Shown: one piece after another, positions 5,688 through 57,961 of the stretch
How the letters are laid out: the number at the start of each line of letters is the position of its first letter
How positions within the stretch are numbered: position 1 is the stretch's first letter
Assembly (NCBI GenBank): GCA_963838925.1
Contig: CAWISW010000003.1
Coordinates: 416,001 to 480,000 of the forward strand
Reading direction: 5' to 3'
From: an uncultured Nitrososphaerota archaeon
GTDB lineage: Archaea > Thermoproteota > Nitrososphaeria > Nitrososphaerales > Gagatemarchaeaceae
Length of the DNA stretch: 64,000 nt
Program-made: the position numbers and the translations under genes
Notes under the pieces: generated by a model
What the model was told of the DNA's origin: nothing
What the model saw: the letters and a program-made list of their open reading frames with translations, nothing else
The model's database searches: none

Positions 5688-5808
5688 TCAGCCGGCCATA
5701 GCGTGTGGGTCCGACCTGGACTCTTTCCGAACCCAGAAGTCAAACCACATGTCGTCTAGGTGTTAGTGAGGTCCGAAAGGTCTCGTGAAGCCTAGATGTC
5801 GGCACCTT
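5688..5808 (+). rRNA. rrf: 5S rRNA, stand-alone
   Basis: GGCCATAGC...CCGAACCCAGAAGTCAAACC...TAGTGAGG..GAAA..CTCGTGAA; terminal helix GCCGGC/GTCGGC; TTAAAT upstream. Confidence 0.93.
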
Positions 5809-19857: not shown

Positions 19858-20505
19858 GTGGATTCGCAAGCCGGAGAACTCGCAGGCATAGTCAAATCTG
19901 CGACCGATTCCCAATTACGGGTTCTCCGGGAGGAGGAGAGAGTCACATATCATTCCGGGAACAAACGGTTGGATAGTTTCGCCGTTAGGCAGGAAGACCT
20001 TACCAAATTGCGAGAACGAATAAACCGCATCAAGTCGCTACGAAGCGTTGACAAACAGTTTGTTGCAACTATGCTGGACACTGAAGTTGCAATTGGTTAT
20101 TTTAGGAAGAAGGAGTTCTATGTTAGGACAGGCTTCGTAATCGGCAGATGGAAAGCCTACGTTTCCGTTAAGATGACATACAAAGGTGACATAGCTCGCC
20201 TAGCAACTTTTCTAGGTCTACAGGTACCGAGCAAGACCAAACTGCATTACAATACCTTGAAGGCAACCAAAGAGGGAGTCTGGTGTCTTCAAACAACTGG
20301 AATCATCCCTTATGTGGCAATAAAGACGGTTGCGCCCTTTCTCTATAATGAGAAGACAAAGATTGAAGCCGAGTCAATAATCAAACACGGCCCGTTTGTC
20401 CCCGGCGAATTCCGTCACCCATTCGAGGATGACGGTGGAGTGAGAGTCAAGAGAGGGGTGTGGATTTGGCCCGGCCTAGAGAAGGCGAACCTGCAAACCA
20501 TTTAA
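19858..20505 (+). CDS. Degenerate LAGLIDADG-like protein
   Basis: FVATMLDTEVAIGY, IKTVAPFLYNEKTK; AT-richer than flanks. Confidence 0.5.
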   Translation: MDSQAGELAGIVKSATDSQLRVLREEERVTYHSGNKRLDSFAVRQEDLTKLRERINRIKSLRSVDKQFVATMLDTEVAIGYFRKKEFYVRTGFVIGRWKAYVSVKMTYKGDIARLATFLGLQVPSKTKLHYNTLKATKEGVWCLQTTGIIPYVAIKTVAPFLYNEKTKIEAESIIKHGPFVPGEFRHPFEDDGGVRVKRGVWIWPGLEKANLQTI

Positions 20506-20529
20506 GCGGGTCACAATGCGGTTGAGACT

Positions 20530-20843
20530 GGTGGCGGGTAGGGCTGGGAGGCTAGCCGTCTTCTCCACTCCAACCGGCTATAGGAGTGCCAGTAACCGTC
20601 GGGTAAAGCCATCCCTCCTCTTTCCTGCGCGCCTGGGCGAGATGATCTCACGCCGGAGCGGGCGGTCGCGAGGTGCGGGCTCCTCGAAGGAGGGGTTCTG
20701 ACTCTTGATTGCCGAAACGGGTGAGGTCCGGGAGGGAGCAACCCTAAGGTGACACGGCCACGCTGCTCCGTCTACGTGTGGGATCGCCCGGTGTGCGCGA
20801 TTGGGAGGGGACGGGGTGGTGAACTCCGGCGGGTCTGCCACCA
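20530..20843 (+). ncRNA. ffs: SRP (7S) RNA
   Basis: Helix 8 AGGTCCGGGAGGGAGCAACC, helix 6 CTCCTCGAAGGAG, terminal pairing GGTGGCGGGT/GGTCTGCCACC, about 314 nt, TTTAAG upstream. Confidence 0.92.
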
Positions 20844-20871
20844 TTTTGTGGCGAACACCGCGGTCCGTTAA

Positions 20872-22206
20872 ATGCGAACGCGCCTTCATAGTAGGTGCCA
20901 TGAGATGAGACAGACGTTCGAGCGCTCCCCATACAGGCACCTCCTCGAGGACCCGGTGGTCCTCGGCTGGGTAACGGAGGGACAGAGGGGGAGCCCGGCC
21001 CTCGCGGGAGGGAGGTTCAGGCGCCTGGGGAACGCGTGCGCCGCATTGAAGACGACCCCGGCAGAGCTCGCTAAGATGGACGAGAGGCAGGCCGTGGGCT
21101 TCCTGCGGCAGCTCGTGGGCGTGTGCGAGGCGAGGGGGATCACGGGCGTGACGACCAAGGGCTACGTCACGGCGGTCAAGAGCTGGTGGCGCTTCAACGA
21201 CCTCGAGGTGAGGAAGAGGGTGACGATCAGGCAGGGGGCGGGGATCTACGACAACGAGCGCATCCCGACGAGGGAGGAGCTCCAGAGGATCCTCGACGTC
21301 TCGCCCATGAGGGAGAAGGTCGCCGCCTCGCTCATCGCCTTCTGCGGATTCAGGCCGCAGGTCTTCGGCGACTTTTTGGGGACGGACGGGCTCGTGCTCG
21401 GGGACGTCCCCGAGATGGAGGTGGCGGGGAGGGAGGTGCGGTTCTCGAAGGTGCCGGCCCTCGTCAGGGTGAGGAAGACGATAAGCAAGAAGCGGAACGC
21501 GTACTTCGCGTTCGCGCCGCAGCAGGCCTGCGACTACCTGAAGAACTACCTCGAGCGGCGGATCGGCCGCGGCGAGGGGCTCTCCCCGGAGTCGCCGCTG
21601 CTCACCTCGGTCTGGGACTACGACCCGCGCCAGGCCGCGCGCATCCGTACGGCCAACATCCAGAAGACCATCGGGAAGTCGATGAGGAAGGCCGGGTTCG
21701 GGTGGCGCCCGTACGTGCTCCGCAGGTACTTCGACGTGCGGATGATGGAGGCGGAGGCCGACGGCCTGATCATCCCCGACTGGCGCGCGTTCTGGATGGG
21801 GCACGCCGGGAGCATGGAGGCGACGTACACGGTGAACAAGGCGCTCCCGGAGGCGACCATCGAGAAGATGCGCGAGGCCTATGGGAGGGCGTGCGAGAAG
21901 CACCTCACCACCGGGAAGGCGGAGGGGGTCACCAGGGAGACGATGCTCGCGACGTTCAACAGGCGCTTCCTCAAGCTCTCTGGGTGGGCGGACGGGGAGG
22001 TCGAGGCCCTCGGCGACCTCAGCGCGATCGGGGAGGAGAGGCTGCAGGAGCTGCTCGAGCAGAAGAGCATGCGGAAGCTGGGCCTCAACGGGAACAGGCA
22101 GAAGGTGGTGCAGATCGGCGATGTCAAGAGGTTCATCGAGGAGGGGTGGGAGTACCTGTCGACGCTCCCCTCGGGGGAGGCAATCGTCAGGCTTCCGGGC
22201 GGCTAG
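20872..22206 (+). CDS. Tyrosine recombinase/integrase (start may be 20905)
   Basis: GFRPQ (R), ISKK (K), PYVLRRYF (H/Y-x-x-R), WMGH, ATY (Y). Confidence 0.9.
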   Translation: MRTRLHSRCHEMRQTFERSPYRHLLEDPVVLGWVTEGQRGSPALAGGRFRRLGNACAALKTTPAELAKMDERQAVGFLRQLVGVCEARGITGVTTKGYVTAVKSWWRFNDLEVRKRVTIRQGAGIYDNERIPTREELQRILDVSPMREKVAASLIAFCGFRPQVFGDFLGTDGLVLGDVPEMEVAGREVRFSKVPALVRVRKTISKKRNAYFAFAPQQACDYLKNYLERRIGRGEGLSPESPLLTSVWDYDPRQAARIRTANIQKTIGKSMRKAGFGWRPYVLRRYFDVRMMEAEADGLIIPDWRAFWMGHAGSMEATYTVNKALPEATIEKMREAYGRACEKHLTTGKAEGVTRETMLATFNRRFLKLSGWADGEVEALGDLSAIGEERLQELLEQKSMRKLGLNGNRQKVVQIGDVKRFIEEGWEYLSTLPSGEAIVRLPGG

Positions 22207-22279
22207 CTGGACACTTGGAGTCGCGTTTTGCCTTTGTGCAGTTGTGGAAGCGAGAGTCACGCGCTTTCCTTCGCTCGAG

Positions 22280-22510
22280 TCATGAACTGGAGCGGTTCAG
22301 CTCGCGGTAGAGCAACCTTGAGTAGAGCTTGAGCTTGATCAGCAACTCGTCCTCTGGGACGTGGTCGGGCTCCGAGAGGATAAGGTCCCTGAGGGCGCTC
22401 GAAGAAGGGAGCGTGGTTCTCGCAAGGTTCTTCAGGTCGACGATGCTCACGAGGGCCTGGGCGCGGTCGGGAGACTGCATGCTTCCACTGACGGTAGCCT
22501 GCTGCCGCAT
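22280..22510 (-). CDS. Small hypothetical protein
   Basis: Compact 76-aa ORF with plausible composition. Confidence 0.5.
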   Translation of the reverse strand: MRQQATVSGSMQSPDRAQALVSIVDLKNLARTTLPSSSALRDLILSEPDHVPEDELLIKLKLYSRLLYRELNRSSS

Positions 22511-22754
22511 TTAACAGGGCATGGCCTCTGAACCGACATGGCTGGGAGTCCATTCCTCACGGTGAGGGTGCATCAACAGTTGACTTCTTGGCCATCCGCT
22601 CAGGCGCGAGGAGAAGGGCCTGCGATACCCACACGCCTTCGATTCGCACGACCTGGTCAAAATCCCCTCTCCAGTAATGGCCCCTACTTGCCCGGGCCCG
22701 GCGGGTTGCTCTTGAAAAATTAAGCGCGAGTCGTTGCGAATGGATTTGAGAACG

Positions 22755-23510
22755 TCAGCCGTTGACCACCGTGAAATGCATGACCGACACTTGACCCCAC
22801 TCGTCCTCCACCGCCACACTGTAGGTTCCAGGAGTGAAGGGTGTTGTTGGCGGAGGTCCTCCATTGCCGCCCCCGATTATGGGATTCTGTGAACCCGAGA
22901 AGTTTGCGAGGTTCCAATAACCACTCGTGGTAAAGTTGTATGACATGACATAGGGCCCGAATTCTTGGACGACTCCCGGCCCCGGTCCAGTCCAAGTGAC
23001 GTTTGCCATGTCGCTGTCAGGCTGGAACGTGATGGTTTTCGCAATCAGGGCGCTATAGCAAGTATATCCGAAGGTGGCGTTGACAGCAGTTGGCAACTGC
23101 TGGACAGAGTAGTTTCCGCTGACAATTTCTACTTCGAGAGGGTAGTTCAAATGACAGGCGCCCCAAGGAGTGACTGGAACACCTTCGAACGACCAGTCAG
23201 TGGACGGAAGGACCGTTGCAACAGTTGGTAGGATGTTCGTTACCCAAATAGAAAGACTCAGATTCTGACCCACTACCAGGTTAGCAGAATTGAGGGATGT
23301 TGTCAACCTAAGGATAGTTGATGCGTTTGATTGGATGAATGAGGATGAAGTCGTCTGTGATGTTCCGGTTGCCGTGATGCCCGACTCCGAACTTCTCGAG
23401 CCGGACCCTTTCTTAGGATAGAGGAGGGCCAAAGTTAAGGCTCCGACTAGAATTATGACAATCAGTCCTATGACAAGTGGAACCTTATGACTATGCCGAC
23501 TTAGATTCAT
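22755..23510 (-). CDS. Membrane-anchored extracellular protein, paralog of 57096-57773
   Basis: N-terminal TM; FTPGTYSVAVEDEWGQVSVMHFTV versus FQPGEYTVAAGDSWGQEDILHFRV. Confidence 0.75.
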   Translation of the reverse strand: MNLSRHSHKVPLVIGLIVIILVGALTLALLYPKKGSGSRSSESGITATGTSQTTSSSFIQSNASTILRLTTSLNSANLVVGQNLSLSIWVTNILPTVATVLPSTDWSFEGVPVTPWGACHLNYPLEVEIVSGNYSVQQLPTAVNATFGYTCYSALIAKTITFQPDSDMANVTWTGPGPGVVQEFGPYVMSYNFTTSGYWNLANFSGSQNPIIGGGNGGPPPTTPFTPGTYSVAVEDEWGQVSVMHFTVVNG

Positions 23511-23613
23511 GACTCAATGCCTTCAAGCAAGGCATGCCTCGTTTTGAACTCTTTGCCCAACAGAATCAAGCCGGGTATCCATTTGCAAGCCGCGTAGATG
23601 CGAAAAAGGTGAA

Positions 23614-24576
23614 TCAAGTTCCGCAGCTATTCTGGTAAGTCCACGTAAAGTCACCAGTGATGCTGTTGGGGGTGGATAGAGCCAGGTTATATGGCGATCC
23701 ACAATTATCCATCACGTAGGTATTGTCGTTGCCATTGTGGAAGGGCGTGTAGTAAAATTGGCAGCTCGTCGTGGAATCGCATATCGCAGGATAGATGGCG
23801 GTCACTGAGCTGAAAGTTGGTAGGGCAGCTGTTCCGCCGCTCAATGTCGGGATTTCAGCAATAGTCTGAGACCAGTAGGCCGTGCCTGACTGGCTCAGCA
23901 CACCGCTCGCGCAACCCCAGCCTGCTCCATTATTGGCAGTGTAATCATTCACGAAGGCTTCGTATTGGCTTGAGCTACCACCCCAATATGGCCCCCACTC
24001 TTCGAGCGCTAGCATATAGTCGCCAGTGCTTACAGGATACGAACTTGTTGAGCATGTTCCCAACGTCGAACCGCCCGAGTAAAGCCAGTCCCACCAAGCG
24101 TCATAAGTCGCTGACCCGCATGAGCCTCCAGAGGTGCAGGTGATGGTTCCAGCGGTGCCCGACTGTACCAGGAAACCTCCTCCGCCTGCATTCTGAGACA
24201 TTCCAGTCCAAATGCCTAAATCGCAAGTGTACGGAGATGATGCGTAACACTGACTATTGGAACTGACAGACGGCTGGTAGAAGTACGAGTCCGTGTCGTA
24301 CACCGCCTGTGCACTCCCACCGGAAATATATTGCACCCCATATCCCGACCATTGGCAGCATGGTGCGTAAACCGTCGTGGTAACGTTAATCCCAAGCACC
24401 CGGCTCATAGCGGGATTCTCCCAGACCTGAACCGTTTCAGGGACATTGTAACTCCCAACCTTGGTAACTATTCCTGGAACACTGAAAAGTACTGCGAGTT
24501 CTCCGAGGGCATCGACGCTGCAAGATTGAGAATGGAGACTAAAGTCCCCGGAAACAACTTTGCCAGAGTGTCTCAT
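23614..24576 (-). pseudogene. G1 (glutamic) peptidase-like gene, 5'-truncated
   Basis: WSGY, IWTG, LVQSGT, IAEIP; lacks signal peptide and about 80 N-terminal residues relative to 31462-32745. Confidence 0.65.
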
Positions 24577-24773
24577 TCAGCTCCTCAACGTACACCGCGA
24601 AAGACTACTACTCAGGTCATGGTTGGAGCGGGTTCAACACCGCCCCGTCTGGATACGCCTGGAGTGCCGTCGGCGACTGGATTTATCAAGGCACCTCTGA
24701 CATTACCACTGCTATTGTAAGCGGCAGTACAACCCAGTTCACTGAGACGTACGTCTCTAGTCAACAAATATAG
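24558..24773 (+). pseudogene. 3' fragment of another G1-peptidase-like gene
   Basis: Manual translation ending ...GSTTQFTETYVSSQQI*, resembling the C-termini FTQTYDSS and FTWTYQNS. Confidence 0.5.
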
Positions 24774-24796
24774 GGACGCTCCATCCAATATGCTGA

Positions 24797-25282
24797 ATGA
24801 GCATGAAGACCGCTGTCACAATGGCTTTAGTCCTCCTCTCCGTTGCGTTTGGCACAATTGTCTCTTTCGAGGCAATCTCACTTCGTGAGAGTAACGTGGG
24901 CGCTCAGTCATCTACCATCGAAAATATCGGGACACTTGAAGTCACAACGTCTTCTTCCTTGTGCCCCGGATTGCAGGATAACATGATTGCCCTGAACAAA
25001 ACAATCGCCGCGATTCAACAGAACGCCACCTTTGTTCTTCTTGAGAAAGGAATGGGCTACAACTATTCTTCAGATGAGGTGTCTTACATACACTATGACA
25101 ACGGAACGAATGTTTGCGAGAATGCGATCTTGCAGTTCACCCCTGAAATTCCTAATTGCGGTCCGACCATTGTTGCTATGGTGACTGCGGGTGGTAGCAT
25201 TGTTGCAGTCTACTCTGCTTCTGCTCTGAGTAACCATGGTTACACTCAGTCTTACTCAACCAATTCAACCAGCGGGTGCTGA
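24797..25282 (+). CDS. Secreted or membrane-anchored hypothetical protein
   Basis: Signal/TM segment, several Cys and N-x-S/T sequons. Confidence 0.65.
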   Translation: MSMKTAVTMALVLLSVAFGTIVSFEAISLRESNVGAQSSTIENIGTLEVTTSSSLCPGLQDNMIALNKTIAAIQQNATFVLLEKGMGYNYSSDEVSYIHYDNGTNVCENAILQFTPEIPNCGPTIVAMVTAGGSIVAVYSASALSNHGYTQSYSTNSTSGC

Positions 25283-25345
25283 AGTCAAAGTCTGTCGAGT
25301 TTGAGAGCAATTTGCCCCAGTTCAGTTTCTGTCCGAATCGGAGGC

Positions 25346-25600
25346 GACATCCACTACCTCACCCCAGACCTCCGCATCATTCCCTTCTGCTCGTTCAACG
25401 TGATTGCCGAGTGGTATCGCGACAAGATCCAGCAAAAGTACGGCCTGCCAATCGAGGCGTGGGAAGCCAAGAACGGCAAGAAGCTCGAAGACGGGCTCTA
25501 CAGAGGAACCCTAAGGCGCGGCGGCCACCACGCAGGCTGCGGATGCGCGGTCGGAGAGCGGGGCGAGGAAGTCCACATCCAGCCTATCACGGGAACTTAG
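25346..25600 (+). pseudogene. 3'-terminal fragment of a Tes-like (tetraether synthase) radical SAM gene
   Basis: DIHYLTPDLRIIPFCSFNVIAEWYRDKIQ...KLEDGLYRG resembles the C-terminus of Tes/MJ0619-family proteins. Confidence 0.7.
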
Positions 25601-26090
25601 CTCACATGACCGGCCCGACTATGCGAAGGGCCGAGCAGCAGCGGGCGCAGCGGGGTCTGCGGGAGCCTGTTAAGCTGGGAACGCAGGCTTGAAGAGCAGG
25701 CCTGCCCTCCACGACCTTCAGATTGACTCCTCGGCCCGAGGAACCAAAGGAGTACGCGATGACGGTGGTCAATCTTGATCTGCCTCTTGGAGGACGTTGC
25801 ACCGGAGCAGGAGCCTACTCTCGACATCAGTGAGATTCCTCTCCAGAAGCCCACCGACGGCTCCTCTACTGCCGCACACCCTCTTGCGAGGTTAGCGCAG
25901 CAGCTTCACATGATGCCGTTTCGGCCACCGTTCTTGATGGCCAACCCTCCTGTCTTGTCGACAGGAGAGCACCCGTTGCTCAACCCAGCGGTCGAGTCGG
26001 GATCTTCAGGGGGAAAATTGAATCTCTCCACGTGGGAGGAAAAGGGCCCAGAGCCCGCGTCCCCATGTCTGCGAAGGAAACTTCCGTCCG

Positions 26091-26417
26091 TCACTTCGTC
26101 ACTGTTGCAAGCTCGCCGAGGATTTTCTTGCCCGGGTCGGTAAGGAAGTAGCTCGAGTACGAAGCCTTGCCCTTCCTGTCGTAGGTGAAGCTCACTAGCC
26201 TCATCGCCTTCAACACGCCGAGATGGTATGCAACAAGCGCCTTGTCCTCCTTGAACCTCTTTGCTATGTCGTTGAACGCTATCCCGGGGTTCTCAGCTAT
26301 CAGCAGGAAGGCGTCCAGCCGTATCCGATTTTGCAGAGCGCCATACAGCATCAGCTTGCGCTGTGCCTCCTTGCGGCTGATTCCCTGTAGCTTGCTGCTT
26401 TGCATGCTGCGAGTCAT
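26091..26417 (-). CDS. ArsR-like winged-helix regulator
   Basis: ALQNRIRL...YHLGVLK...YFLTDPG. Confidence 0.8.
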   Translation of the reverse strand: MTRSMQSSKLQGISRKEAQRKLMLYGALQNRIRLDAFLLIAENPGIAFNDIAKRFKEDKALVAYHLGVLKAMRLVSFTYDRKGKASYSSYFLTDPGKKILGELATVTK

Positions 26418-26666
26418 TCTCTCACTCCCTCGCTCTTGGATATAAGGCTTTTTAATAGTTAAATGCAGTTTGAACTTCTAAGAACCCAAAAAATGTCTCA
26501 CGCTAAACGAGGTGCCGAAATTGTCCAAAAGTAAACCAACAACTGTCCGTTCCCTTTCCCAAACCCTCCGAGGAACCATGATTTTCAGGAATCACTGAAC
26601 TGGAAGCCTAGAGGGCAAGTTTCGCTAGCTCGTTAGTAGCCAGCCACATTCTCGCCATCGAAGGCG

Positions 26667-26999
26667 TTAAGGTATACCAGGGACGTGCTCCTGGAGCTCC
26701 TTGAGTTCCTGCTTCCCCCGATCTGTCAGGAAATAGCTCGACGACACCGCCTTCCCTTTCCTTTCGGTGGTGAAGCGAACCAGACCGCCTGCGTGAAGGA
26801 TCGCGAGCTCAACTGCGACGTGCGCCTTTTCGACTTTCAACTCCCGGCAAATCTGTCTGAAGCTTACTCCCTGGTTCTTCGCAATCATGAAGAAAGCCCT
26901 CAACCGCATGCGATTGCCGAGCGCCGTGTAGACCGAGAGCTTCGCGTAAGCTTTCTTGAGTTCTGGACCTTCCAACTTGCTCTTCGTGTCCATCGCCAT
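26667..26999 (-). CDS. ArsR-like winged-helix regulator, paralog of 26091-26417
   Basis: ALGNRMRL...RKGKAVSSSYFLTDRG. Confidence 0.8.
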   Translation of the reverse strand: MAMDTKSKLEGPELKKAYAKLSVYTALGNRMRLRAFFMIAKNQGVSFRQICRELKVEKAHVAVELAILHAGGLVRFTTERKGKAVSSSYFLTDRGKQELKELQEHVPGIP

Positions 27000-27170
27000 C
27001 CATGCCTGAGAAAGGGAGGTAGAAATAGATGACCCGTTCTACATGAGAGTTCATATTTTGTAGCCTGTTAGAGGGCCTCCCTCTCCATTTCCGAAAAGGC
27101 CCCTATACTCTTCACAAAGCCCTCAAGGTTTGCCAGGAACCCTTCGTGGTACAGAATTTCTAACCGGAAT

Positions 27171-27195
27171 GGTTCGAATCCCACCGGGCCCGCCA
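27171..27195 (+). repeat. Isolated tRNA 3' fragment (att remnant)
   Basis: GGTTCGAATCCCACCGGGCCCGCCA with no 5' half nearby. Confidence 0.75.
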
Positions 27196-27273
27196 TTTCC
27201 TCAGTACCGAACCCCCCTAGCTTTTAGTCGTGGTCAAGGGTTCGAGTCGGAAGGGATTCGCGTGAACCTCCCT

Positions 27274-27411
27274 TTACTTTTCGAACAACCTGCCCGTCCA
27301 CTCAAGCATCTGCTCCTTGTGACTCTGGAGGAAGGGCATGTTCAGGTAGTGGTGAAGGGACGTCATCATGGTGTGCCCCTGGCTCAGGAAGATTTCGGCC
27401 GCACGCTCTGG
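27274..27411 (-). pseudogene. C-terminal remnant of a second tyrosine integrase
   Basis: Manual translation PERAAEIFLSQGHTMMTSLHHYLNMPF (GH...Y). Confidence 0.65.
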
Positions 27412-27958
27412 GTTCCAGCTTCCGCACTGTCAAACTTTCGGCTGGTGGAGCAGAGCCCAACTTTGAGCCAGCCCGGAAAATATCACCTGCCGAAGAGCCC
27501 AGCAGGCTGTTCATACAGCACTTGCGATTGGTTCCATAGTCGCTTTATACGTAGCTTGCGATTCCACAGACGGAAAAGGTATGCCACCGTTCATGAGAAG
27601 GAAACGCTCGGGTGAGAAAATAGCATTGCGGTATGCGCGTACCTAATTTTTGCGCGTTGCGAGGAAAGCTTGGTGCCTTCTCCCTTTTGTTGCGTCTACG
27701 ATTCTAACGCCTGGGTTTCGCTCGTCATACCACTCGTTGGTCTGATCACTCTGATTTCACCGTGGCTTGAGCTCGAAGGTCAAAAGACGAACGTGCACAA
27801 CTGGGCTCGCGCACTCAGCTCGTGCCGAAGGATTTCGACAGAATCATAGACTCCCGGGAGCTTTAGCGCGTTACAATAGCATCAATGTGGTGACCTGTTA
27901 TGCCGCATGCGCGCTACCGCATTTGACACTGAGTTCCGAATCAGGCGATCTTCGCATT

Positions 27959-28822
27959 TCAGCCATCCAGCATCCCTGCGCCCTCCAGAACCGTAAGGGC
28001 CTTCTCTTTCACAAAGGCGTTTATCGACTTCCAATCTTCCAGGTAGCTGCGCCTAGACTCCGAGGGCAGTTTTATGGCGTTCCGCGCGTTGCGGGGGTCG
28101 GACGTTTCCTTGAACCTCTGGAAAAGCTCGGGCTTCCTGATCCTCGACCCTGTCGCTGATAGCGCGGCGATGATTTCGGAGTCGTCCACCGATATATCGC
28201 TCGAATTGAAGAGCGCGTAGATGTCGAAGATGTCCTTGTAAAGGTCCTTGACCTTCCTGTGCGGCATGATCCGGATCTTGCTAGCTATGATCAGCGCCGG
28301 CGAAAGCACCGGGACCTCCTCCTTGACGTATTCGACCCCGATGTATGATTTCGGCTTCCTCATCTCGTACTTGCCGAAGGCGAGCGTGTTCGAGATGGTC
28401 ACGTAGAACTCCGGGTCGACGTCGCCGGACTTGAAGGACTGGCTGTACCGCTTGAGGAGCGCGACCGTGCACCTCTTCAGTTCGGCGGGGACGGCCGAAT
28501 CGTACCGCTTGAACCTGCCCTCCGACTCCGCGCCGTACCCTACCTCTTTGAGGTCCCGGAAACCGCTGACCTCCCTCAGGATGTTGTGGACGTCCCCGTC
28601 GTTCGAGTAGAAATCGAGGTCTATGCTGAACCTCTGGAGCTCCTGCGGCAGGTAGGCGCGCACGCCGTGCCCCCCGCCGAGACAGAGGGGGCTCTTCGGC
28701 TTCATCAGCCCGCCGGCGCGAAGCTCCTCGATCGTGACCAGCAGCTGGTACTCCCTCTCGACGAAGGACTCCTGCAGCCCCAGCCTCTTTGCTATCTCTT
28801 GTATCTGCCTGTCGGAGACTAT
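27959..28822 (-). CDS. AbiEii-like nucleotidyltransferase toxin (type IV TA), inferred ATA start
   Basis: FVEREY upstream of the first ATG, LGGGHG, RFSIDLDF, ASKI, KDIFDIY. Confidence 0.82.
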   Translation of the reverse strand: MVSDRQIQEIAKRLGLQESFVEREYQLLVTIEELRAGGLMKPKSPLCLGGGHGVRAYLPQELQRFSIDLDFYSNDGDVHNILREVSGFRDLKEVGYGAESEGRFKRYDSAVPAELKRCTVALLKRYSQSFKSGDVDPEFYVTISNTLAFGKYEMRKPKSYIGVEYVKEEVPVLSPALIIASKIRIMPHRKVKDLYKDIFDIYALFNSSDISVDDSEIIAALSATGSRIRKPELFQRFKETSDPRNARNAIKLPSESRRSYLEDWKSINAFVKEKALTVLEGAGMLDG

Positions 28823-29526
28823 GGGAACCCAGACCCCTTCGCTTCCTCCAGCTCCCGGAGAACCTCTTCAAGGACCCCCCTGCTCTTCGCATACGACCTC
28901 AGGAAGTCCGTGTCGACGCTATGGCGGGAGTTTGTGATCGCCTCGGCGACGTTCTCGACGAACACCCTGGACTGCTTCTCCGCGACGGCGTCCACCAGCA
29001 GCTTCTCCGGCCTCGACACCTGCAGCAGCCCGATCTTCTTTGCGGATGCCGTGTTGCGGTCCTCGACTATCCTGGAATTCGAAGTAAAATCCGAGTCCAT
29101 GGCCTTGGAGAGCGTTCGACTGGCAAATCTCCTGAACGCCTTCTGGTTCCCGGTCCTGATCTCGATCTCGGGATCAGGCTCGGCGTCTTTCACGGGCAAC
29201 TGCTTCTCGAGCGCGAGCTCTCCGCCCAGCGATGCATCGCTGAGGCCCTTTCTGGACAGGAACGCCATCGTCAGCTGCGCCTTCTTTGCCCTGTTGGTCT
29301 GAAGCGCTATGAGGAATGGGTAGACCGCATCCACGTCCTCGTCCCTGATCCTGAGCTTCTTCTCCCTGCCCGCCTTCTGGAAGGCCACGAACGGGAAGGA
29401 GGATGCCTTGTATAACGTGGTCGGGTACGACAGGCCAGTTGCCCTGGCCAGCTGGCTCACGCTGAGCTCCCCGTTGAGCGCCAGCTGTTCCAGAAGCCTC
29501 CCTTCAGTACCGTACACGTTTGCCAT
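28819..29526 (-). CDS. AbiEi-like antitoxin with N-terminal wHTH
   Basis: LSVSQLARATGLSYPT, SRPEKLLVDA; overlaps toxin gene. Confidence 0.75.
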   Translation of the reverse strand: MANVYGTEGRLLEQLALNGELSVSQLARATGLSYPTTLYKASSFPFVAFQKAGREKKLRIRDEDVDAVYPFLIALQTNRAKKAQLTMAFLSRKGLSDASLGGELALEKQLPVKDAEPDPEIEIRTGNQKAFRRFASRTLSKAMDSDFTSNSRIVEDRNTASAKKIGLLQVSRPEKLLVDAVAEKQSRVFVENVAEAITNSRHSVDTDFLRSYAKSRGVLEEVLRELEEAKGSGFP

Positions 29527-29560
29527 TTTCGGCTTACCTGATGTTCCTTCCAGCGGCTCT

Positions 29561-29584
29561 ACCTATTAAGAGTTTTTAATAGGT
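29561..29584. promoter_or_regulatory. Inverted repeat over the TA promoter (probable operator)
   Basis: ACCTATTAA-N6-TTAATAGGT. Confidence 0.6.
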
Positions 29585-30021
29585 TTCCGAACGCAAGCGC
29601 AGTCTCAATTGGCTTGCCAAATCGGCATTCAAGGATTGCCGATCACATCGTCGAGTTCTGCCTCGACAACCATGACGACAAATGCCTACGGAACGATTTC
29701 AGGGAACTCCAACGTGGCCTCGTGAGCGGGTCGCCTTGCACGTATTTTGGAAAGCGGGGCGCAAAAACTTCTAACATTTGCAAGTTGCAACATTTGAAAG
29801 TATGGCGTTCAGGCTAGCTCCGATATCAGGGAAGGGTTTCATCGGAAGGGACCACGGCGACGGACTTTTTGAAGATGGTGCAGAAGGTGCTCGCGACGCA
29901 GGTGCGGGCGCGAGACGAGTCGACCATCCTCGATCTCGATATCCGACCGCAGCGCTCCACAACATGTCCAATCATTTAGAAGGCGATTAAATGGCGGACC
30001 TGCCGAGCCCTGTTGACATAA

Positions 30022-30070
30022 GGGGGCTCAACAGTTGAGCCCCCGAATTCGGCGGACCAACAGTTGGTCC
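30022..30070. repeat. Two palindromes with CAACAGTTG core
   Basis: GGGGGCTCAAC-A-GTTGAGCCCCC and GGACCAAC-A-GTTGGTCC. Confidence 0.75.
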
Positions 30071-30613
30071 CCTCGTCAAAGCAGCCCCGGGTCAAAGACA
30101 GGAAGTCTACGGGAAGATCCTGGTTGCCCTTCGAAGGTGGCCAATTCGACGTGATTCACATAGCCTTGCCCGTGGTTATTTGCCCGCTTTCAGCCAGGAA
30201 TTGGCCACCCGATGTGGCCAGGCCCATGCACCAGATGCCTTCAGGTTTGATGTCTTTCGAGAACGGCTTCCTTTGAAGCCACCGGGCTGACCTCGAGAGA
30301 GGGTGTATGGTGATGGAGGGGCGATACTGACCTAGCGCGCTTGACCTGGAGAATTGCGACACATTTCGCCAAGCGCCAAATAACGACTCCGCGCTATGCT
30401 ATCGGAATTCGACTCCGCTTCCTGCAGCGAAACGCGATGTATACGCCGATTCACCTCTCAAACGCCCTGCAAGCGACGCCGCTCCAATCTATCTCTTGGT
30501 GCTTCTCAGCGTGGAGCGTAAATACCAAGCTTGACAGTAGTAAGTGAATGACCGACATACCTTACCTGGAATCTCGAAGTGTGGGGTTAAGGTCTCTCGG
30601 CGGAGAGGGCAGA

Positions 30614-30670
30614 CTAGGCTACGTCCCCCCATCGAGACCGCCTACACCAGGCGGGGATTAAAAGCTCAGC
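30614..30670 (-). repeat. Copy of tRNA-Trp promoter plus tRNA nt 1-15
   Basis: 30614-30638 identical to 2700-2724; GGGGATTAAA box also shared. Confidence 0.88.
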
Positions 30671-30758
30671 AAATGTCAGCTGGTATTCTTCCGCTTATAG
30701 GCCACGCTCATTGGGCTGTTAACCGTCGGCTCCCTGTTCGCGAAACACCGGCGCTAGT

Positions 30759-31373
30759 TCAGCAACATCCCTGCTCAAACTGGACATTGAATGTCTCGAA
30801 ATCCCAAACTTCTTGGGAAATCAGCCAACCACCCCCATAGTATCTGTATGAGTAACTCGCCGAAATAGTTCCGTTGTAGGCTCCTAGAACATGGGCCATT
30901 CCGCTGAAAGCCAGCTCGGCATTTATGGTCGCCGTGTCGTTGGAACTTTGGGTGATGCTTGTGCTGTACGAATATATCACGAAAGAGAAGTTCGACGACT
31001 TACCGAACAACGTGTCCAGAGGAAGTGAGATTTCCTCCACCCCGTTGTAGGTTCCTCCAAGACCTTGAGAAGTGCCGTTCACAATCATTGTTGCGTTCTG
31101 CGCGTAGTCCAGAAGAGCGCCCGTTGTGTTGAGGTCATGAAGCTTCAAGACGTGAGAGAGCCATGCTCCCACAAGATCAGACGATCCAGAGAGCGTTGAA
31201 CGTGTTCCGGCCTGACCCTGGTAACTTGCGATTGAAGAACTAAGACTTCTGTTCGCACCCTGCAACCCACTCAGCTGTAAGTAAAGGGAGCCAGACACTA
31301 TCAGCACTACGACAAGGACAGCAAGTGTTACAAGAATGATGCTTCTTGATGCCGTCGTCCCCGACTGCTTCAT
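30759..31373 (-). CDS. Membrane-anchored SnoaL/NTF2-like protein
   Basis: N-terminal TM, GGTYNG, WLISQEVWDF; paralog of 1725-2429. Confidence 0.7.
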   Translation of the reverse strand: MKQSGTTASRSIILVTLAVLVVVLIVSGSLYLQLSGLQGANRSLSSSIASYQGQAGTRSTLSGSSDLVGAWLSHVLKLHDLNTTGALLDYAQNATMIVNGTSQGLGGTYNGVEEISLPLDTLFGKSSNFSFVIYSYSTSITQSSNDTATINAELAFSGMAHVLGAYNGTISASYSYRYYGGGWLISQEVWDFETFNVQFEQGCC

Positions 31374-31461
31374 TTCCAGATTTGCTCCGTGTTAATCATT
31401 CCTTTTGGCCCTTTGGGCAAACCACTCTTTACTTGTTGAAAGTTCTCCTTAGGAAAGAGAG

Positions 31462-32745
31462 CTAGTATGTACCCAAACTGCTGTCGTAAGTCTGGGTGAA
31501 GTATCCTTCTGTGCTTCCGCAGCAGTTCTCGCTCATGCTACTCGTAGATGTGTCATCAGTGTAGATGCTGGTCGTTATGTTCTCGTTGCGCATGTAGGCA
31601 CCGAAGCCGTAGTCAGAGTTGTAGTTGGGATAAGCCCCTAATTGATGCGACGTTGAACCCAATTCGACATCATAGAAATCAAAGTTGGTGAATTTCGGCA
31701 ATGTATAATATCCCACACCTATCTGGGGGCGTTCTCCGAAAAAGTCAGCAAAGAGTTCCGTGTGGACCTCGCCTCCCGTCGCGTTGTATTCGACCTCGCA
31801 GAACTTGCCGTAGGTTACGTCCTCAAGAATGGTGTAGTATGGGTTGCCCGAGGTGCCGTTAATTTGCAATTCATTGCCGACTTCGGCGTAAATGGAGTCG
31901 CCTTGGCTCATCGAAATATAACCTGAGCAATAGGTCGGAGGAGGGGAATAGTTGTCGTCGCCAGCCCTGAGGTATTCACTGAACCCAACAACAGAAACAT
32001 AGCAGTTGTTGCTTTCATTGCACGTGTAATTCCCTTGCGTCCCTGTTTGGACGACCTCGCCTGTGCCGCTTATGGAACCTCCTCCGTCGTACGTGCTGTT
32101 TTGGAGTCCCACCCATGAATCAAAGAGACATTCGGTGTTGGAGTCATACCCCGTCGAAACACATTTGGGTTCTCCACTGCCCGAGGGCTGGTAAAGAGTA
32201 GGGGCGTACCAATTAGAACTGGCATAATCCACCGCTTGCGACTCTGCTGAGTTATTCGCAATTGCATATCCTGAATAGGTGTAAGTCGGACCTGTTGCTA
32301 TTGCCGTCGCGTATGCGATCCCGTGCCTTGTAACGTTATAGATAATGCCCAATGTGGGATTTTCTTCTACGGTCAAGATGTAGTTGTGCCCCTGACTATT
32401 AGTCAGTAGGAAGTTCGCTGCCGCATCATGCCAAGAGATTGAGCAATTTGTTACGTTCGCTGACCACTCATTCGCAAACCCTGAAAAACTTGCGTTGAAT
32501 CCATTCACAGCTGTTTTGAACGCCGTAGATTGAAGAGCGAAGTCCTGTAAAGCTTCCGAACTAACCTGGTCTCCAGCATCGACGATCTTGGAGGACAGCA
32601 TCTGACTTGTGCAGTTTCCAGCCGTGTCAGCCGACGCTGAGCTTACCATAGTCAGCATTGCGATTGGAGAAATGATTAGGAGAAAGAGCATCAGAATTGG
32701 AACGGTTCTTGCCCCGGACCCTTGAGTATTGAACGCAGAGGCCAC
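31462..32745 (-). CDS. Secreted G1 (glutamic) peptidase-like protein
   Basis: Signal peptide, pro-region, YSGY, SWVGL, VVQTGT, FFGERP (Q/E dyad). Confidence 0.7.
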   Translation of the reverse strand: MASAFNTQGSGARTVPILMLFLLIISPIAMLTMVSSASADTAGNCTSQMLSSKIVDAGDQVSSEALQDFALQSTAFKTAVNGFNASFSGFANEWSANVTNCSISWHDAAANFLLTNSQGHNYILTVEENPTLGIIYNVTRHGIAYATAIATGPTYTYSGYAIANNSAESQAVDYASSNWYAPTLYQPSGSGEPKCVSTGYDSNTECLFDSWVGLQNSTYDGGGSISGTGEVVQTGTQGNYTCNESNNCYVSVVGFSEYLRAGDDNYSPPPTYCSGYISMSQGDSIYAEVGNELQINGTSGNPYYTILEDVTYGKFCEVEYNATGGEVHTELFADFFGERPQIGVGYYTLPKFTNFDFYDVELGSTSHQLGAYPNYNSDYGFGAYMRNENITTSIYTDDTSTSSMSENCCGSTEGYFTQTYDSSLGTY

Positions 32746-33132
32746 ATGTTACTAATGAAGTTCCCCACGTTTAATTCTTGTGAAATGATGTTCTACATCG
32801 TTTTCTCCTATAGTAGTCTGCAACTTTACAGTCCCTTCGAGCACTTGGCGATTTAATGCGCCTTTTTTGTTACGATACAGTTCCGAGTTCGGCGCTGTGA
32901 CGTTTATTTTACGGTGCCAGAGGTTCCGTGCCGCAAGGGCGGTCATCTTTTGGCCGACTTCAAACCTCATTACTATTCGTATGGTTTCTGTGTATACACA
33001 TCTAGCAGAATCTGCGGTTTCGGACTTCTGGCCCTGGAAAAATGTCACGGCACCAACTCCATCTCTAGGAGTACTCCTGATGGGAGCAAACCAAAACGGC
33101 TTACGCCTGCCTCGCCGGGGCAAACCCTAGAA

Positions 33133-33254
33133 AACCGACGACGACCCGCAGGTTTCGCCGCTCCGATGGGAAATCATCCACGCAAGCGTGTCATCAAACT
33201 TTTTGTCGTTTGACCACTGGAGCCTGTTGCCATGCCTGTCTAGGATACGTCCCC
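33133..33254 (-). pseudogene. Promoterless, 3'-truncated tRNA-Trp copy including the whole intron
   Basis: 33149-33254 matches 2609-2714 with 3 mismatches; weaker match continues to 33133. Confidence 0.9.
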
Positions 33255-33585
33255 TCGGCCGTCGCCATTCTTATGTTCTGATTGAAGTCTGCCGTCAAAG
33301 GACATGGGGGCCATTCCTGTGGAGGAATATCCCTCGCAATTCTCAGTGGATTTTAAATAGGCAAGCCATGTTATCATCGAGTTGCTGGAAAGAACCATGT
33401 CGAGGAAAAGCCTGGTTCACCACCATTTAGTGGCAGGGACCGGCGGGTCTGCCACCATTCTTGGCGAAGACTCTTCCTACTTTTTCCACCCTCCGCGCTC
33501 GACCACGGAAGCGATTCTCAATGTGTAGAAACGTGTCTGTGTGTTATTAGGCAGCGCCCCCTCTCAATGTCCAGGTAGAATACCA

Positions 33586-34182
33586 ATGCAAAACGTCGGC
33601 TACAGACCCGCAGTCACCAACACTGTGTTCGCGGGAGTGACAATCGTCCTGATAATCATCGCCGCGGCAGGCTTCGGCCTTTACGCGACAAAGACCGCAA
33701 CCACGGCGACCTCAACAGTGACCGAGACGATGACCGCCTCGGCAGCGGCATCTACTGGAAGCTCACAGTTGCTCGTCGCGATATGGAACACCAATGCAGG
33801 GGACACGCTCCCTGCCCCGACTGTTACGGTGACCGCTCAGACTGCCGGAGCCACGGTCACGCCTTCAAGTGCGAACCCACCAGGCATATCCCCCGGCAAC
33901 ATAGCGACCTACGGCTACACAATCACGGGGGCGGTTGCGGGCTCACTACCGATCGTCGTATCCATAACGAACAATAGCGGAGTTGCATATGACCCGAACG
34001 TCGCGGTTGTGTCCAGCACTCCTGGGGCAATGGTCACGCCGGCAAGTACCAACCCGACATCCGTATCAGCAAGTAGCACGCAGTCCTTCGACTTCGCGGT
34101 CACAGGAGGAGGAACAGGCCTCATCACGATCAGCCTTTCGTTTCCAGGCCCAGGCCCCATCAGCGTCGCAATATCCATTTAG
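33586..34182 (+). CDS. Membrane-anchored protein with two Ig-like repeats
   Basis: N-terminal TM; repeated T.GA.VTP.S.NP. Confidence 0.65.
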   Translation: MQNVGYRPAVTNTVFAGVTIVLIIIAAAGFGLYATKTATTATSTVTETMTASAAASTGSSQLLVAIWNTNAGDTLPAPTVTVTAQTAGATVTPSSANPPGISPGNIATYGYTITGAVAGSLPIVVSITNNSGVAYDPNVAVVSSTPGAMVTPASTNPTSVSASSTQSFDFAVTGGGTGLITISLSFPGPGPISVAISI

Positions 34183-34388
34183 AGCCTATCCCAAGAATGA
34201 CACCCTGGGACTACCGGGCGCGTCGCCTGGACCAATCCAGGCATCCACGCGTCGATCCAATAATCGGTTTGCAGGGACAGCGTCTCTTTACGAGGCCAGA
34301 GCGTTCGAAGCAGTTTCTCCATGCACACTGCTCGCCGCCTTTTGATTGCCGATCTTCGAGCGGCCCAAGCCGAGGAGCCCAATCAATT

Positions 34389-34409
34389 GGTGGGCTCTGC
34401 CGCCATTTT
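34389..34409 (+). repeat. Degenerate third copy of the SRP RNA 3' end
   Basis: GGTGGGCTCTGCCGCCATTTT versus GGCGGG-TCTGCCACCATTTT. Confidence 0.55.
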
Positions 34410-34440
34410 TAATACCGCCAGACGGCCGGGCCTTGCTGGA

Positions 34441-34572
34441 GCGGGGGTCGCCTAGCCTGGTAGGGCGAAGGATTGCTAATCCTTTGTCCGCAAGGATTCG
34501 TGGGTTCGAATTCGGGGCAGATCTTCGTGGCGGACCTGGTCTGCCCGGACGAGTGTCCCACCCCCCGCGCCA
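34441..34572 (+). tRNA. trnS: tRNA-Ser(GCT) with 45-nt intron at 59/60 (34511-34555)
   Basis: AAGGA-TTGCTAA-TCCTT anticodon arm, long variable arm, BHB motif restoring GGTTCGAATCCC, encoded CCA. Confidence 0.93.
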
Positions 34573-34574
34573 TT

Positions 34575-34904
34575 CTATTCTAGCTTGCTGAAGAAGCAGC
34601 TGTGCTTGCCGGTGTGGCAGGCCGGGCCGGTCTGGTCGACGACATAGAGCAGCGTGTCGTTGTCGCAGTCGACAAGTACCCGCCTCACCTTCTGGATGTG
34701 CCCCGAGGTGTCGCCCTTCTTCCAGAGCTCGTTCCTGCTCCTGCTCCAGTAGGTCGCAAGCTTGGTCTTCATGGTCGTCTCGACCGCCTCGCGGTTGGCG
34801 TAGGCCAGCATCAGGACCTTGCCGGTCTTCGCCTCCTGGGTCACGACCGGTACCAGGCCGCTGCCCTTTGCGAAATCGATCTCGTCTATCTTCGACGCTT
34901 TCAA
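34575..34904 (-). CDS. hisI: Phosphoribosyl-AMP cyclohydrolase
   Basis: [27 protein letters not shown]; TTG overlapping the hisF stop. Confidence 0.95.
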
Positions 34905-35659
34905 GGTCTGACCACGACCCCATTCGCCGCCAGATAATCTTTCACCTGCTTGACCGTGAGCTCGCGGTAGTGGAAGAGGGACGCGGCAAGCGCCGCGTCG
35001 CACCCGCCGTCGACGAAGGCCTCCAGGAAGTGCCTCAGCGTCCCTGCGCCTCCGCTCGCCACCACCGGGATCCTGACCTTCTGCGTGATCGACCTAAGCA
35101 GCCCGATGTCGTATCCCATCTTCGTGCCGTCGCGGTCTATCGAGGTGACCAGCAGCTCTCCGGCCCCGAGCTCCGCTGCCCTCTGAGCCCACGCGACCGC
35201 GTCGACGCCGGCCGACCTCGTCGCCGAGTGGCTGAAGACCTGGTACCCGTCCTTCACCCTCCTCGCGTCTATGGCGACCACGACGCACTGCGATCCGAAG
35301 ACGTCCGCTAGCTTGGTGATGAGCCCTGGCTGCCTCAGGGCCGCGGTGTTGACCGCCACCTTGTCCGCCCCGCTCGCCAAGGCCAGCCTCGCGTCCGCCA
35401 TGCTCCTTATCCCGCCTCCCACGGTGAACGGGATGTCGAGGCTCGCGGCGACGCTCCTCACGAGGGAGCGCATGGTCGCCCTCTTCTCGAGGCTCGCGGT
35501 GATGTCTAGGAAGACCACCTCGTCAGCGCCCTCGTCCCTGTATCTGGAGGAGAGCTCGACCGGGTCTCCCGCGTCCCTCAATCCCTCGAACTTGACTCCC
35601 TTCACCACCCTGCCCGCCTTGACGTCCAGGCAGGGCACTATCCGCTTCGCGAGGGTCAT
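34901..35659 (-). CDS. hisF: Imidazole glycerol phosphate synthase cyclase subunit
   Basis: [29 protein letters not shown]. Confidence 0.97.
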
Positions 35660-54433: not shown

Positions 54434-54439
54434 GGCTCG

Positions 54440-54566
54440 CGACAAGAAGCTCGAGGACGGGCTCTCCCGTGGAACCCTGAGGCGCGGCGGGAACCACGCC
54501 GGCTGCGGATGCGCCGTCGGCGAGCAGGGCGAGAGAGTCCACATCCAGCCGATTTCCGGAGCCTAG
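54440..54566 (+). pseudogene. Distal half of the Tes-like 3' fragment, reading frame intact
   Basis: DKKLEDGLSRGTLRRGGNHAGCGCAVGEQGERVHIQPISGA*, matches 25474-25600. Confidence 0.85.
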
Positions 54567-54750
54567 ACAGGAAAGAACGAACCTCGCCGAGGGACTTTCC
54601 GTTGGCCAGGCTAGGGTCAAGGCAATCTTTGGGCGTCTAGGCGGAAGAATCGGAATCTTATTTCAGCGAAGTAGCAAGAATGAGCGAATTTGCCGAATTA
54701 GTTAGATAAGGCGTAAATAATCGCGACGATGTTAATGCGAATAGGGCGAT

Positions 54751-57773: not shown

Positions 57774-57897
57774 CCTCACCTCAGCATCGCACTCTTCTGC
57801 TTGTTCAAGGTAATACACGAGTGGCACCGCGACAAGATTCACCAAAAGTGCGGCTCCCGATTGAGGTGTAGATAGCTAAGAACGACAAGAAGCTCGA
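57774..57897 (+). pseudogene. Proximal half of the Tes-like 3' fragment, decayed
   Basis: Aligns with about 25357-25488, with indels and substitutions. Confidence 0.8.
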
Positions 57898-57961
57898 AAG
57901 GCAATTGCCTCGAACTAAGCTGAGGGTGGGTGCAGATATCCTAGCGCAATCTTGATTTGTA

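Follow-up and report, generated by a model that had tools for sequence, protein, structure and literature searches.

We examined a 64,000-nucleotide stretch of the genome of an uncultured Nitrososphaerota archaeon (contig CAWISW010000003.1, positions 416,001 to 480,000; hereafter the window, whose own numbering is used throughout), in which displaced pieces of a tRNA-Trp gene (trnW) enclose two protein genes at 30614-33254. We conclude, with a probability of about 0.7, that 20846-33459 is a cryptic element inserted site-specifically at the 3′ end of the signal recognition particle (SRP) RNA gene, and that this element is a composite carrying the attL- and attR-type attachment (att) scars of an earlier residence at a tRNA-Trp gene. 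The original prediction had read the tRNA pieces as a free-standing, circularly permuted cassette around a peptidase operon that could serve as an expression switch. That interpretation was partly supported: its geometry was right, but its unit and its function were wrong. The source genome (G000) is a metagenome-assembled genome (MAG) of 1.84 Mb, 87% complete, in 3 contigs of 0.41-0.82 Mb. It was compared with 61 related genomes, with 23 genomes of the genus, and with contigs from four soil-metagenome runs of one study. The runs supplied short-read contigs only, contained at most 0.48 of the sampled words, and are unable to reveal rare excised or circular forms. Repeats were evaluated against 100 shuffles.

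The native tRNA-Trp(CCA) gene, interrupted by an intron of 63 nt, lies at 2578-2714 on the minus strand (Rfam tRNA model, 44.7 bits; ARAGORN with introns allowed). Together with its promoter block, which reaches to about −44, it occupies 2578-2758 and was the reference for both displaced copies; the block 2571-2758 is conserved in the relatives G018 and G006. The repeat CTAGG(C/A)TACGTCCCC occurs three times in the window, at 2700, 30614, and 33240, always on one strand. The shuffles gave an expectation of 0.23 copies, and none of the 100 reached three. Of these, the copy at 2700 forms the beginning of the native gene. Searching all 1.84 Mb with the tRNA region returned two further pieces, called copies B and C below, and alignment confirmed the permuted pieces, their coordinates, and the 106 bp with 3 mismatches as originally proposed.

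Copy C (33149-33254, minus strand) corresponds to tRNA-Trp nt 1-106 at 97% identity (3 mismatches, E 1e-45). It starts with a 15-nt core (core C, 33240-33254) that carries G10T, followed by the 5′ exon, the intron, and the first nt of the 3′ exon. The 3′ end is missing, and the aligned homology to the tRNA ends 5-7 nt into the 3′ exon. Upstream of copy C, the hexamer TTCAAT stands in place of the native TTTAAT at nearly the same spacing. The absence of a promoter is therefore not established, and of the predicted "promoterless tRNA body" only the tRNA body stands. Copy B (30614-30670, minus strand; 84% over 57 nt) consists of the promoter, to about −42, and tRNA-Trp nt 1-15. Its core (core B, 30614-30628) matched nt 1-15 exactly in repeat and pattern searches, the promoter-block copy occupies 30629-30670, and the alignment diverges from the tRNA precisely after nt 15. 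Cores B and C are in direct orientation, and 30629-33239 contains no recombinase open reading frame (ORF). Joining the two 15-nt repeats would indeed set the promoter and nt 1-15 before nt 16-106. The copy B promoter matched those of G006 and G018 at 93% of 55-57 nt and that of G000 itself at 86% of 49 nt; for the latter, a second comparison gave only a 25-nt exact match. Copy C differed from the G006/G018 trnW by 2 mismatches in 106 nt and from the G000 gene by 3. Because both copies are closer to the G006/G018 trnW than to that of G000, their sequences point to a donor of the G006/G018 kind.

The nature of the two copies became apparent from elements that insert at the 5′ end of trnW in related genomes. 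By pattern search, a second same-strand core was found upstream of trnW in 4 of the 23 genus genomes, at a distance of 16.3 kb in G016, 18.4 kb in G021, 1.09 kb in G022, and 60 kb in G015, which has its own core variant. The G016 and G021 inserts are bounded by the exact 15-nt core GGGGACGTAGCCTAG, and a conserved arm follows the upstream copy (tctgccctc, a hairpin, then ggtaaggtatggcggtcatt). The same sequence follows copy B in G000. There the left-arm module of this family occupies 30511-30613 on the minus strand (hairpin, then GGTAAGGTATG.CGGTCATT), and 30511-30628 as a whole has the core-plus-arm layout of the G016/G021 type. The G000 arm matched that of G021 at 89% of 84 nt, that of G016 at 75% of 122 nt, and six metagenome contigs at 82-86%. 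A 24-mer spanning core and arm was present in six metagenome contigs: three were of attL type, two of attP type, and one had a different upstream sequence. The three attL contigs (L110, L112, and L113) showed the native trnW/5S rRNA context, matched window 2700-5800, and contained the same type of junction as copy B. The two attP-type contigs had the unrecombined order integrase, promoter, core, and arm, with the integrase internally deleted. As the arm after core B corresponds to that of the trnW-inserting elements, copy B is, on sequence grounds, an attL-type junction composed of the trnW promoter, the 15-nt core, and the left arm of the trnW-targeting family, and copy C is its apparent attR-type reciprocal, in which the core is followed by the tRNA body.

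In G016 and G021, the integrase (455 aa; Pfam, 8e-11 and 2.4e-6) is divergent from trnW and lies about 75 nt away, so that the element supplies the upstream region of the tRNA gene. Elements at the trnW 5′ end leave the gene intact behind an element-supplied promoter. The principle of insertion without loss of trnW, part of the original proposal, was seen in G016, G021, G015, G022, and the three attL contigs, while the G1/NTF2 cassette itself was at no trnW in the 23 genomes. In the same set, trnW-linked elements exist, but the gene pair between copies B and C was never found directly upstream of trnW. A split integrase of the SSV type spanning attP was ruled out, because the integrase ORFs are whole when integrated and a stop codon lies in the rebuilt attP. 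Unlike the G016 and G021 inserts, which are placed at trnW, copy B lies 27.9 kb from the native trnW across conserved chromosome. This 27.9 kb interval was itself rejected as a second integrated element, as it is syntenic in G018, G006, G020, and G010.

Several further features of these trnW elements and of their target were observed. In the modelled attP of G016 (L068) and G021 (L069/L070), an ORF of ~51 codons (MTAIPYL...) runs from the arm through the core and promoter region. In both elements it is in frame with the integrase, with one stop codon between them, and it is frameshifted in G000. The arm (30570-30613) begins with a 6-bp hairpin directly after the core, with a compensatory double change in G016 and a wobble pair in L110. 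A T-run follows the hairpin in most copies and is lost in G000; hairpin and T-run may terminate transcripts from the displaced tRNA promoter. The arm module also occurs after a different 5′-tRNA-like core (..GTGGCTAG) at about 3085-3170 in L077 (G001:C92) and L082 (G011:C218), about 280 nt from another integrase of the same family and with tRNA-3′-like fragments between, which suggests that an arm with a 5′ core beside a second att site is a recurring layout. The 1.09 kb insert in G022 contains no integrase; it is bordered on one side by the promoter with nt 1-22 and on the other by nt 1-20. The tRNA-Trp gene of that genome (L057, G022:C22, about 7560-7640, minus strand) has 38 extra nt in the D-loop with the 8-nt repeat TAGACAGG at the flanks. 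These 38 nt resemble the reverse complement of the trnW promoter and could represent either a newly gained intron, for which an intron-gain model is available for comparison (PMC3293823), or the scar of a rearrangement next to the 1.09 kb insert. Before synteny returns just upstream of the trnW promoter block (about −44; window 2758-2780), there is an extra 0.59 kb in G018 (C7 817759-818349) and 3.6 kb in G006 (C8 37822-41451). This additional DNA may be the remnant of earlier trnW insertions.

The unit that carries copies B and C is defined by the SRP RNA gene. The full-length SRP (7S) RNA gene, a single copy in G000, lies at 20532-20840 on the plus strand (RF01857, 100.5 bits, model positions 1-317 of 317). 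Its last 15 nt plus the next 5 nt form a 20-nt core, CCGGCGGGTCTGCCACCATT, at 20826-20845, which recurs as an exact direct repeat at 33440-33459, the right end of the element, also on the plus strand. These were the only two matches in the window, and none of the 100 shuffles had any. Insertion at this site appears, from the repeat, to have restored the final 15 nt of the SRP RNA gene. The enclosed 20846-33459 measures 12,614 bp and has a GC content of 0.549, versus 0.61 for the genome. Thus the G1/NTF2 cassette is not free-standing as had been supposed; it sits inside a 12.6 kb integrase-bearing element. A tyrosine integrase gene, here int-S (20872-22206, plus strand), starts 26 nt after the first repeat. 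It encodes an intact protein of 444 aa that conserves the R, (H/Y)xLR, GH, and Y columns, matched the PHROG integrases (8.9e-6), and fell below the cut-off for Pfam Phage_integrase (0.0089). Over 425 aa, the protein shared 30% identity (E 6e-41) with the Pfam-positive integrase of G016, which is of the trnW type, and it was similarly related to that of G021.

Homologues of int-S at E ≤ 1e-20 were present in 39 of the 61 related genomes. Its four closest relatives (at least 61% identity) were those of G010 (67%, with 4 stop codons), G003 (61%), G017 (94% over 126 aa), and G004 (78% over 137 aa). Each of the four sits immediately 3′ of the SRP RNA gene, and more distant homologues adjoin tRNA genes. 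The far end of the G010 island matched window 33411-33462 at 79% of 53 nt. In G018 and G006, the SRP core occurs once and no integrase of the int-S type is found at the SRP RNA gene; the interval between SRP RNA and tRNA-Ser holds other DNA there, and a clean empty site was not recovered. The chromosomal order trnW, 5S rRNA, ~15 kb of core genes, SRP RNA, variable island, tRNA-Ser, and his operon is shared with G018, G006, G020, and G010 at 70-89% nucleotide identity. The G1/NTF2 cassette lies in the variable island, across which GC drops from about 0.62 to 0.48-0.56.

Between int-S and the left-arm module, the element cargo (22207-30510) consists mostly of unknown secreted or membrane ORFs. 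The distal arm (33255-33439) shares its last ~30 nt with the G010 element. Most cargo has a GC content at third codon positions (GC3) of about 0.5, compared with 0.85-0.92 in flanking genes, and the composition is mosaic: GC3 is 0.95 in the integrase, 0.82-0.85 in an AbiE pair, and about 0.5 in the rest. That pair, chromosome-like in GC3, comprises an AbiEii-like nucleotidyltransferase toxin (Pfam, 1.5e-10) and a helix-turn-helix (HTH) partner resembling AbiEi, at 27959-28705 and 28819-29526. Apart from AbiEii and the integrase, Pfam, NCBIfam, and PHROGs gave only HTH/MarR-like matches for the remaining cargo ORFs, and no viral or conjugative hallmark gene was detected with these databases among the element ORFs. 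We therefore describe it as a cryptic integrated element.

The two genes between copies B and C were then characterized. The first encodes a 427-aa protein (31462-32745, minus strand), predicted to be a secreted homologue of the G1 (eqolisin) glutamic peptidases. A profile built from 10 homologues matched the heavy chain of aspergillopepsin II (1y43_B, E 7e-4), with the G1 motifs WVGxxx, QTG, WxE, GD, and A(E/D)xxxE aligned. Q233 is kept in 9 and E338 in 10 of the 10 homologues; they align to the Gln of QTG and the last Glu of AEWIVE in 1y43_B, which we take to be the counterparts of the G1 catalytic residues Q24 and E110. Foldseek, run on a poor structural model (pLDDT 52.8), placed scytalidoglutamic peptidase first (2ifw_A, E 5e-4), followed by 2ifr and 1s2b, so that entries for this enzyme filled the top three places. 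The protein thus has the catalytic Gln/Glu positions and a fold signal in common with G1 peptidases, and differs in being about twice as long as the solved G1 chains, with N- and C-terminal extensions. The second gene encodes a 204-aa protein (30759-31373, minus strand) with an N-terminal membrane anchor. Its model (pLDDT 75.9, ~90 over residues 60-200) shows an N-terminal helix and matched LinA, SnoaL, and ketosteroid-isomerase-like folds in Foldseek (E 1e-7; TM 0.75-0.78 on the target). Atlas leads belonged to the same clan with scores below 0.9. Neither protein had a match in Pfam. Despite this, both predicted labels hold up: the 427-aa ORF as a G1-like peptidase homologue whose activity is only predicted, through the profile match and Foldseek, and the 204-aa ORF as a modelled member of the NTF2-like superfamily with its α+β cone fold, which it shares with NTF2 and SnoaL.

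This gene pair behaves as cargo elsewhere. A G1-like homologue was found in 4 of the 61 related genomes, and the NTF2-like family in 18 of them, with 11 matches in G000. At several loci, members of the two families adjoin each other in the same order. In all three relatives examined, the pair lies 6-9 kb from an integrase of the same family, in a low-GC island at other tRNA genes. A TATA-like AATTAAA at 32770-32776 precedes the GTG start of the G1-like gene by 25-31 nt, the usual position of a TATA box for leaderless archaeal mRNAs. With a box of its own, the gene does not need a promoter switch, and both genes are probably ordinary secreted-protein cargo with their own promoter.

We then considered how the two trnW junctions came to lie in permuted order. 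When the element is drawn as a circle joined through its two SRP cores, the order becomes promoter, core B, arm, cargo, integrase, SRP attP, distal arm, core C, tRNA nt 16-106, G1, NTF2, and back to the promoter. This is the ordinary picture of a 10 kb element integrated at the trnW site of a 2.6 kb partner. The locus looks permuted owing to the point at which this circle was linearized, namely the SRP att site, which separates the integrase from core C, and not the trnW core; in the chromosome, this places the tRNA body first and the promoter last. The circular stage is deduced from this topology. None of the linear models tried, namely two independent insertions, a captured tRNA copy, and exchange between direct repeats, yields the observed order.

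The most likely history is tandem accretion at trnW, co-excision, and re-integration at the SRP RNA gene. The process would have begun with a small integrase-less unit, either a decayed element or a hitchhiker resembling a cis-mobilizable element (CIME), that carried ~150 nt of trnW, from the promoter to nt 106, together with the G1/NTF2 pair. A larger element would then have come to lie in tandem with this unit at the trnW of a G006/G018-like donor, and recombination between the outer repeats would have released both as a single circle. Finally, the composite would have integrated at the SRP RNA gene through its SRP-specific integrase module. The trnW junctions now in G000 are probably fossils of this sequence of events. 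The 2.6 kb segment between cores B and C has a CIME-like layout, as it lacks an integrase, has att cores at both ends, and adjoins an integrase-bearing element with a shared core. The occurrence of G1/NTF2 as cargo elsewhere, the G022 insert, other att relics, and the mosaic composition support the accretion history. In bacteria, tandem accretion of ICEs (integrative and conjugative elements) and CIMEs, decay to integrase-less att-flanked units, and co-excision are established (PMC5704250), and nested and arrayed elements have been described in Thaumarchaeota (PMC6563490). An origin of the G1/NTF2 pair as donor DNA upstream of trnW, taken up by aberrant excision, found no support, because the three attL contigs and the relatives show the same beta-propeller/5S context upstream of the trnW promoter as G000, and because the pair behaves as element cargo elsewhere. 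A GTCTGCC heptamer common to the SRP core and the trnW core/arm junction was dismissed as too short to be meaningful.

Several observations weigh against this reconstruction. The integrase in the large arc of the circle is of the SRP type and shares, for the greater part of its length, only ~30% identity with the trnW type, so that a module swap or a helper integrase must be assumed; a swap could have involved the conserved C-terminal region, where the two types share about 77-80% nucleotide identity. The left arm of the small unit would be the tRNA body itself, unlike in every other trnW element seen, and the sequence beside core C (33255-33300) is only weakly similar to known element-borne trnW promoters. 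In G009, ~1 kb separates a segment resembling 33304-33422 from a G1-like gene, and no trnW piece intervenes, which fits less easily with an origin of G1/NTF2 and the distal arm from different partners. Neither a circle junction nor an empty-site junction was seen in the short-read contigs. Moreover, the relatives compared are draft MAGs, and G000 itself is 87% complete.

The alternative closest to the original prediction is an active, integrase-less 2.6 kb cassette that excises between the 15-nt repeats, uses the trnW promoter as an expression switch, and re-inserts at trnW. The geometry fits, the 1.09 kb insert in G022 is likewise integrase-less and sits at trnW, and elements at the trnW 5′ end do provide a promoter; the 150 nt of trnW homology might even permit Campbell-type insertion with no integrase. 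However, no trnW-type integrase was found in G000 at its 87% completeness, core C is mismatched, and the G1-like gene has its own TATA-like box, so the switch is not supported. Excision would also leave a tRNA fragment with no 3′ exon and no obvious use. The closest G1-like homologue found is a paralogue within G000 at 54% identity, and of 49 pattern matches in metagenome contigs, none was confirmed by protein search as a G1-like gene, so there is no sign of recent spread. The excised junction that had been proposed as a check, 33240 joined to 30614, was not found in the contigs of the four runs. The sole contig with such a joint (33239 to 30614, going back 2626) is 376 nt long, shows 4 mismatches on one side and 5 on the other, runs on into a tRNA 3′ end that differs, and therefore represents the intact trnW of a co-occurring relative. 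Loose contig ends at 33141, 33254, and 33257 likewise belong to native trnW genes, those of G000 and of its relatives. The contigs, which can miss rare forms, thus gave no evidence of current mobility or switching, and we consider an active cassette distinctly unlikely. A related idea, that the 2.6 kb unit is an undescribed type of archaeal integrase-less mini-element, appears unlikely. Mobile by virtue of its ~150-nt copy of the tRNA promoter, 5′ exon, and intron, such a unit would insert at trnW by a helper integrase or homologous recombination, accrete with larger elements, and be carried by them to new sites, in this case the SRP RNA gene. If this were true, its carrier would be a dual-att element for which both stable-RNA genes could serve as targets.

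Alternatively, an SRP-type element could have acquired the trnW pieces independently of each other, or could have captured an attB "decoy" in which a trnW-type element became trapped, with G1/NTF2 and the distal arm having always been neighbours. The G009 arrangement favours this, as do the usual position of G1/NTF2 pairs as the last cargo beside an att site and the other att relics in the element, a tRNA-Arg fragment and an undivided sequence at 25400-25640. In opposition to this, the two pieces are exact reciprocal halves of one attP × attB exchange, and with direct repeats no linear insertion or intramolecular exchange gives the order body, cargo, promoter, as reasoned from the map. Furthermore, a circular stage would be needed in any case, since both cores have the integrase and the SRP attP on their arm side. 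We regard independent entry as quite improbable. A chimeric join at the tRNA-derived repeats during assembly would be conceivable in a MAG, particularly with related strains carrying their own trnW in the same runs, and misassembly had been named as a refutation of the permuted locus. The repeats, however, measure just 15-106 nt, in an assembly that consists of 3 contigs of 0.41-0.82 Mb, and independent short-read contigs of run X1 gave depth in 30 of 30 bins of 20001-35000. One 151-nt contig crosses core C with 0 mismatches (33228-33378), although with only 27 nt on the tRNA side it falls below the 31-nt rule, and the promoter-core-arm junction was independently present in three metagenome contigs. 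An artefact is therefore a very remote prospect, and the composite element with trnW fossils remains our preferred reading.

Other traces of integration were noticed in and around the SRP element. A 25-nt sequence at 27171-27195 is a 96% match to the 3′ end of tRNA-Arg(CCT), which is encoded on another contig, and may be a further att relic within the element; two more tRNA-Arg(CCT) 3′ fragments are at G000:C3:793894 and 795376. A second "permuted" pair spans 25400-25640, 54366-54606, and 57810-57940: 25400-25640 matches 57810-57898 in its left part and 54440-54566 in its right, and a core of ~ACAAGAAGCTCGA is common to them. The low-GC island at 54.4-57.9 kb, just after an SMC/Rad50-like gene, thus has on either side one half of a sequence that the SRP element contains in undivided form, and resembles a further small integrated element in which a gene or att site is split. 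Public contigs pile up at 25-26 kb, with a depth of 20-28 against about 4-8 elsewhere. At the tRNA-Ser gene (34473-34511), contigs of co-occurring relatives have a 32-nt insertion at 34473/34474 and differing 3′ flanks after 34511, which suggests an intron-bearing tRNA-Ser variant with variable downstream DNA in these relatives. At 60665-60937, eight copies of a 33-nt (11-codon) repeat lie within an ORF.

Taken in this way, what appeared to be a permuted tRNA locus preserves a legible history of accretion and joint movement among archaeal integrative elements. The result also implies that tRNA fragments distant from their gene need not reflect local events. Two integrase lineages emerge as leads in soil Nitrososphaerota, one with the SRP RNA 3′ end as its attachment site, and a non-split one at the tRNA-Trp 5′ end that provides the tRNA promoter. 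The defined cores (20 nt for SRP and 15 nt for trnW) are directly testable recombination substrates.

The G000 element resembles the cryptic elements of Thaumarchaeota surveyed by Krupovic et al. (2019, PMC6563490): a tyrosine-integrase element of ~13 kb with short att repeats in a stable-RNA gene, no viral or conjugative hallmarks, and nesting or chimerism. That survey listed 68 elements, of which 39 targeted tRNA genes, 15 intergenic sites, and 14 the 3′ ends of protein genes; all but one of the tRNA integrations were 3′-distal and one was 5′-distal, and NitEve-E7 was nested in NitEve-E6. The terms "SRP", "signal recognition", and "tRNA-Trp" are absent from the text and four supplementary files of the survey. 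An archaeal SRP RNA att site was not described in the literature searched, which did not cover subscription journals, although bacterial cases exist. Phage phiEf11 of Enterococcus faecalis has its att site, with a 27-nt core, in ffs, the gene for 4.5S SRP RNA (PMC12540744). As in G000, the core lies within the SRP RNA gene and the integrase gene is near attP. The phage, however, is bacterial and uses a small SRP RNA, whereas the G000 cryptic element uses a 20-nt core at the extreme 3′ end of an archaeal 7S-type gene.

For the trnW family, the nearest parallel is with the pTN3-like (SSV-family) integrases of Thermococcales, which target the 5′ half of a tRNA gene so that the tRNA is expressed from element sequence (Badel et al. 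2021, PMC8371274). The G016 and G021 elements likewise recombine in the 5′ part of the tRNA and rebuild the gene behind element sequence beside the integrase. They differ in that the pTN3-like integrase is split by integration while their 455-aa ORF stays whole, and in belonging to another host phylum. In Caldiarchaeum, a mobile element scatters tRNA gene fragments (Sugahara et al. 2012, PMC3293823); there, too, a 5′ tRNA fragment is parted from the intact gene by a recombinase-bearing insert, and fragments lie far from the gene. In that case, fragment and gene are the two ends of one insertion, whereas in G000 both junctions travel inside another element. The closest model for the composite itself is found in streptococci, where CIMEs, integrase-less and att-bearing, lie in tandem with an ICE or an integrative and mobilizable element, and the composite is movable (PMC5704250). 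Those systems are bacterial, conjugative, and experimentally shown, whereas the G000 case is deduced from one fossil. What would set the G000 composite apart from them is the use of a second, different att site, that of the SRP RNA gene, for re-integration, which gives the locus its permuted look.

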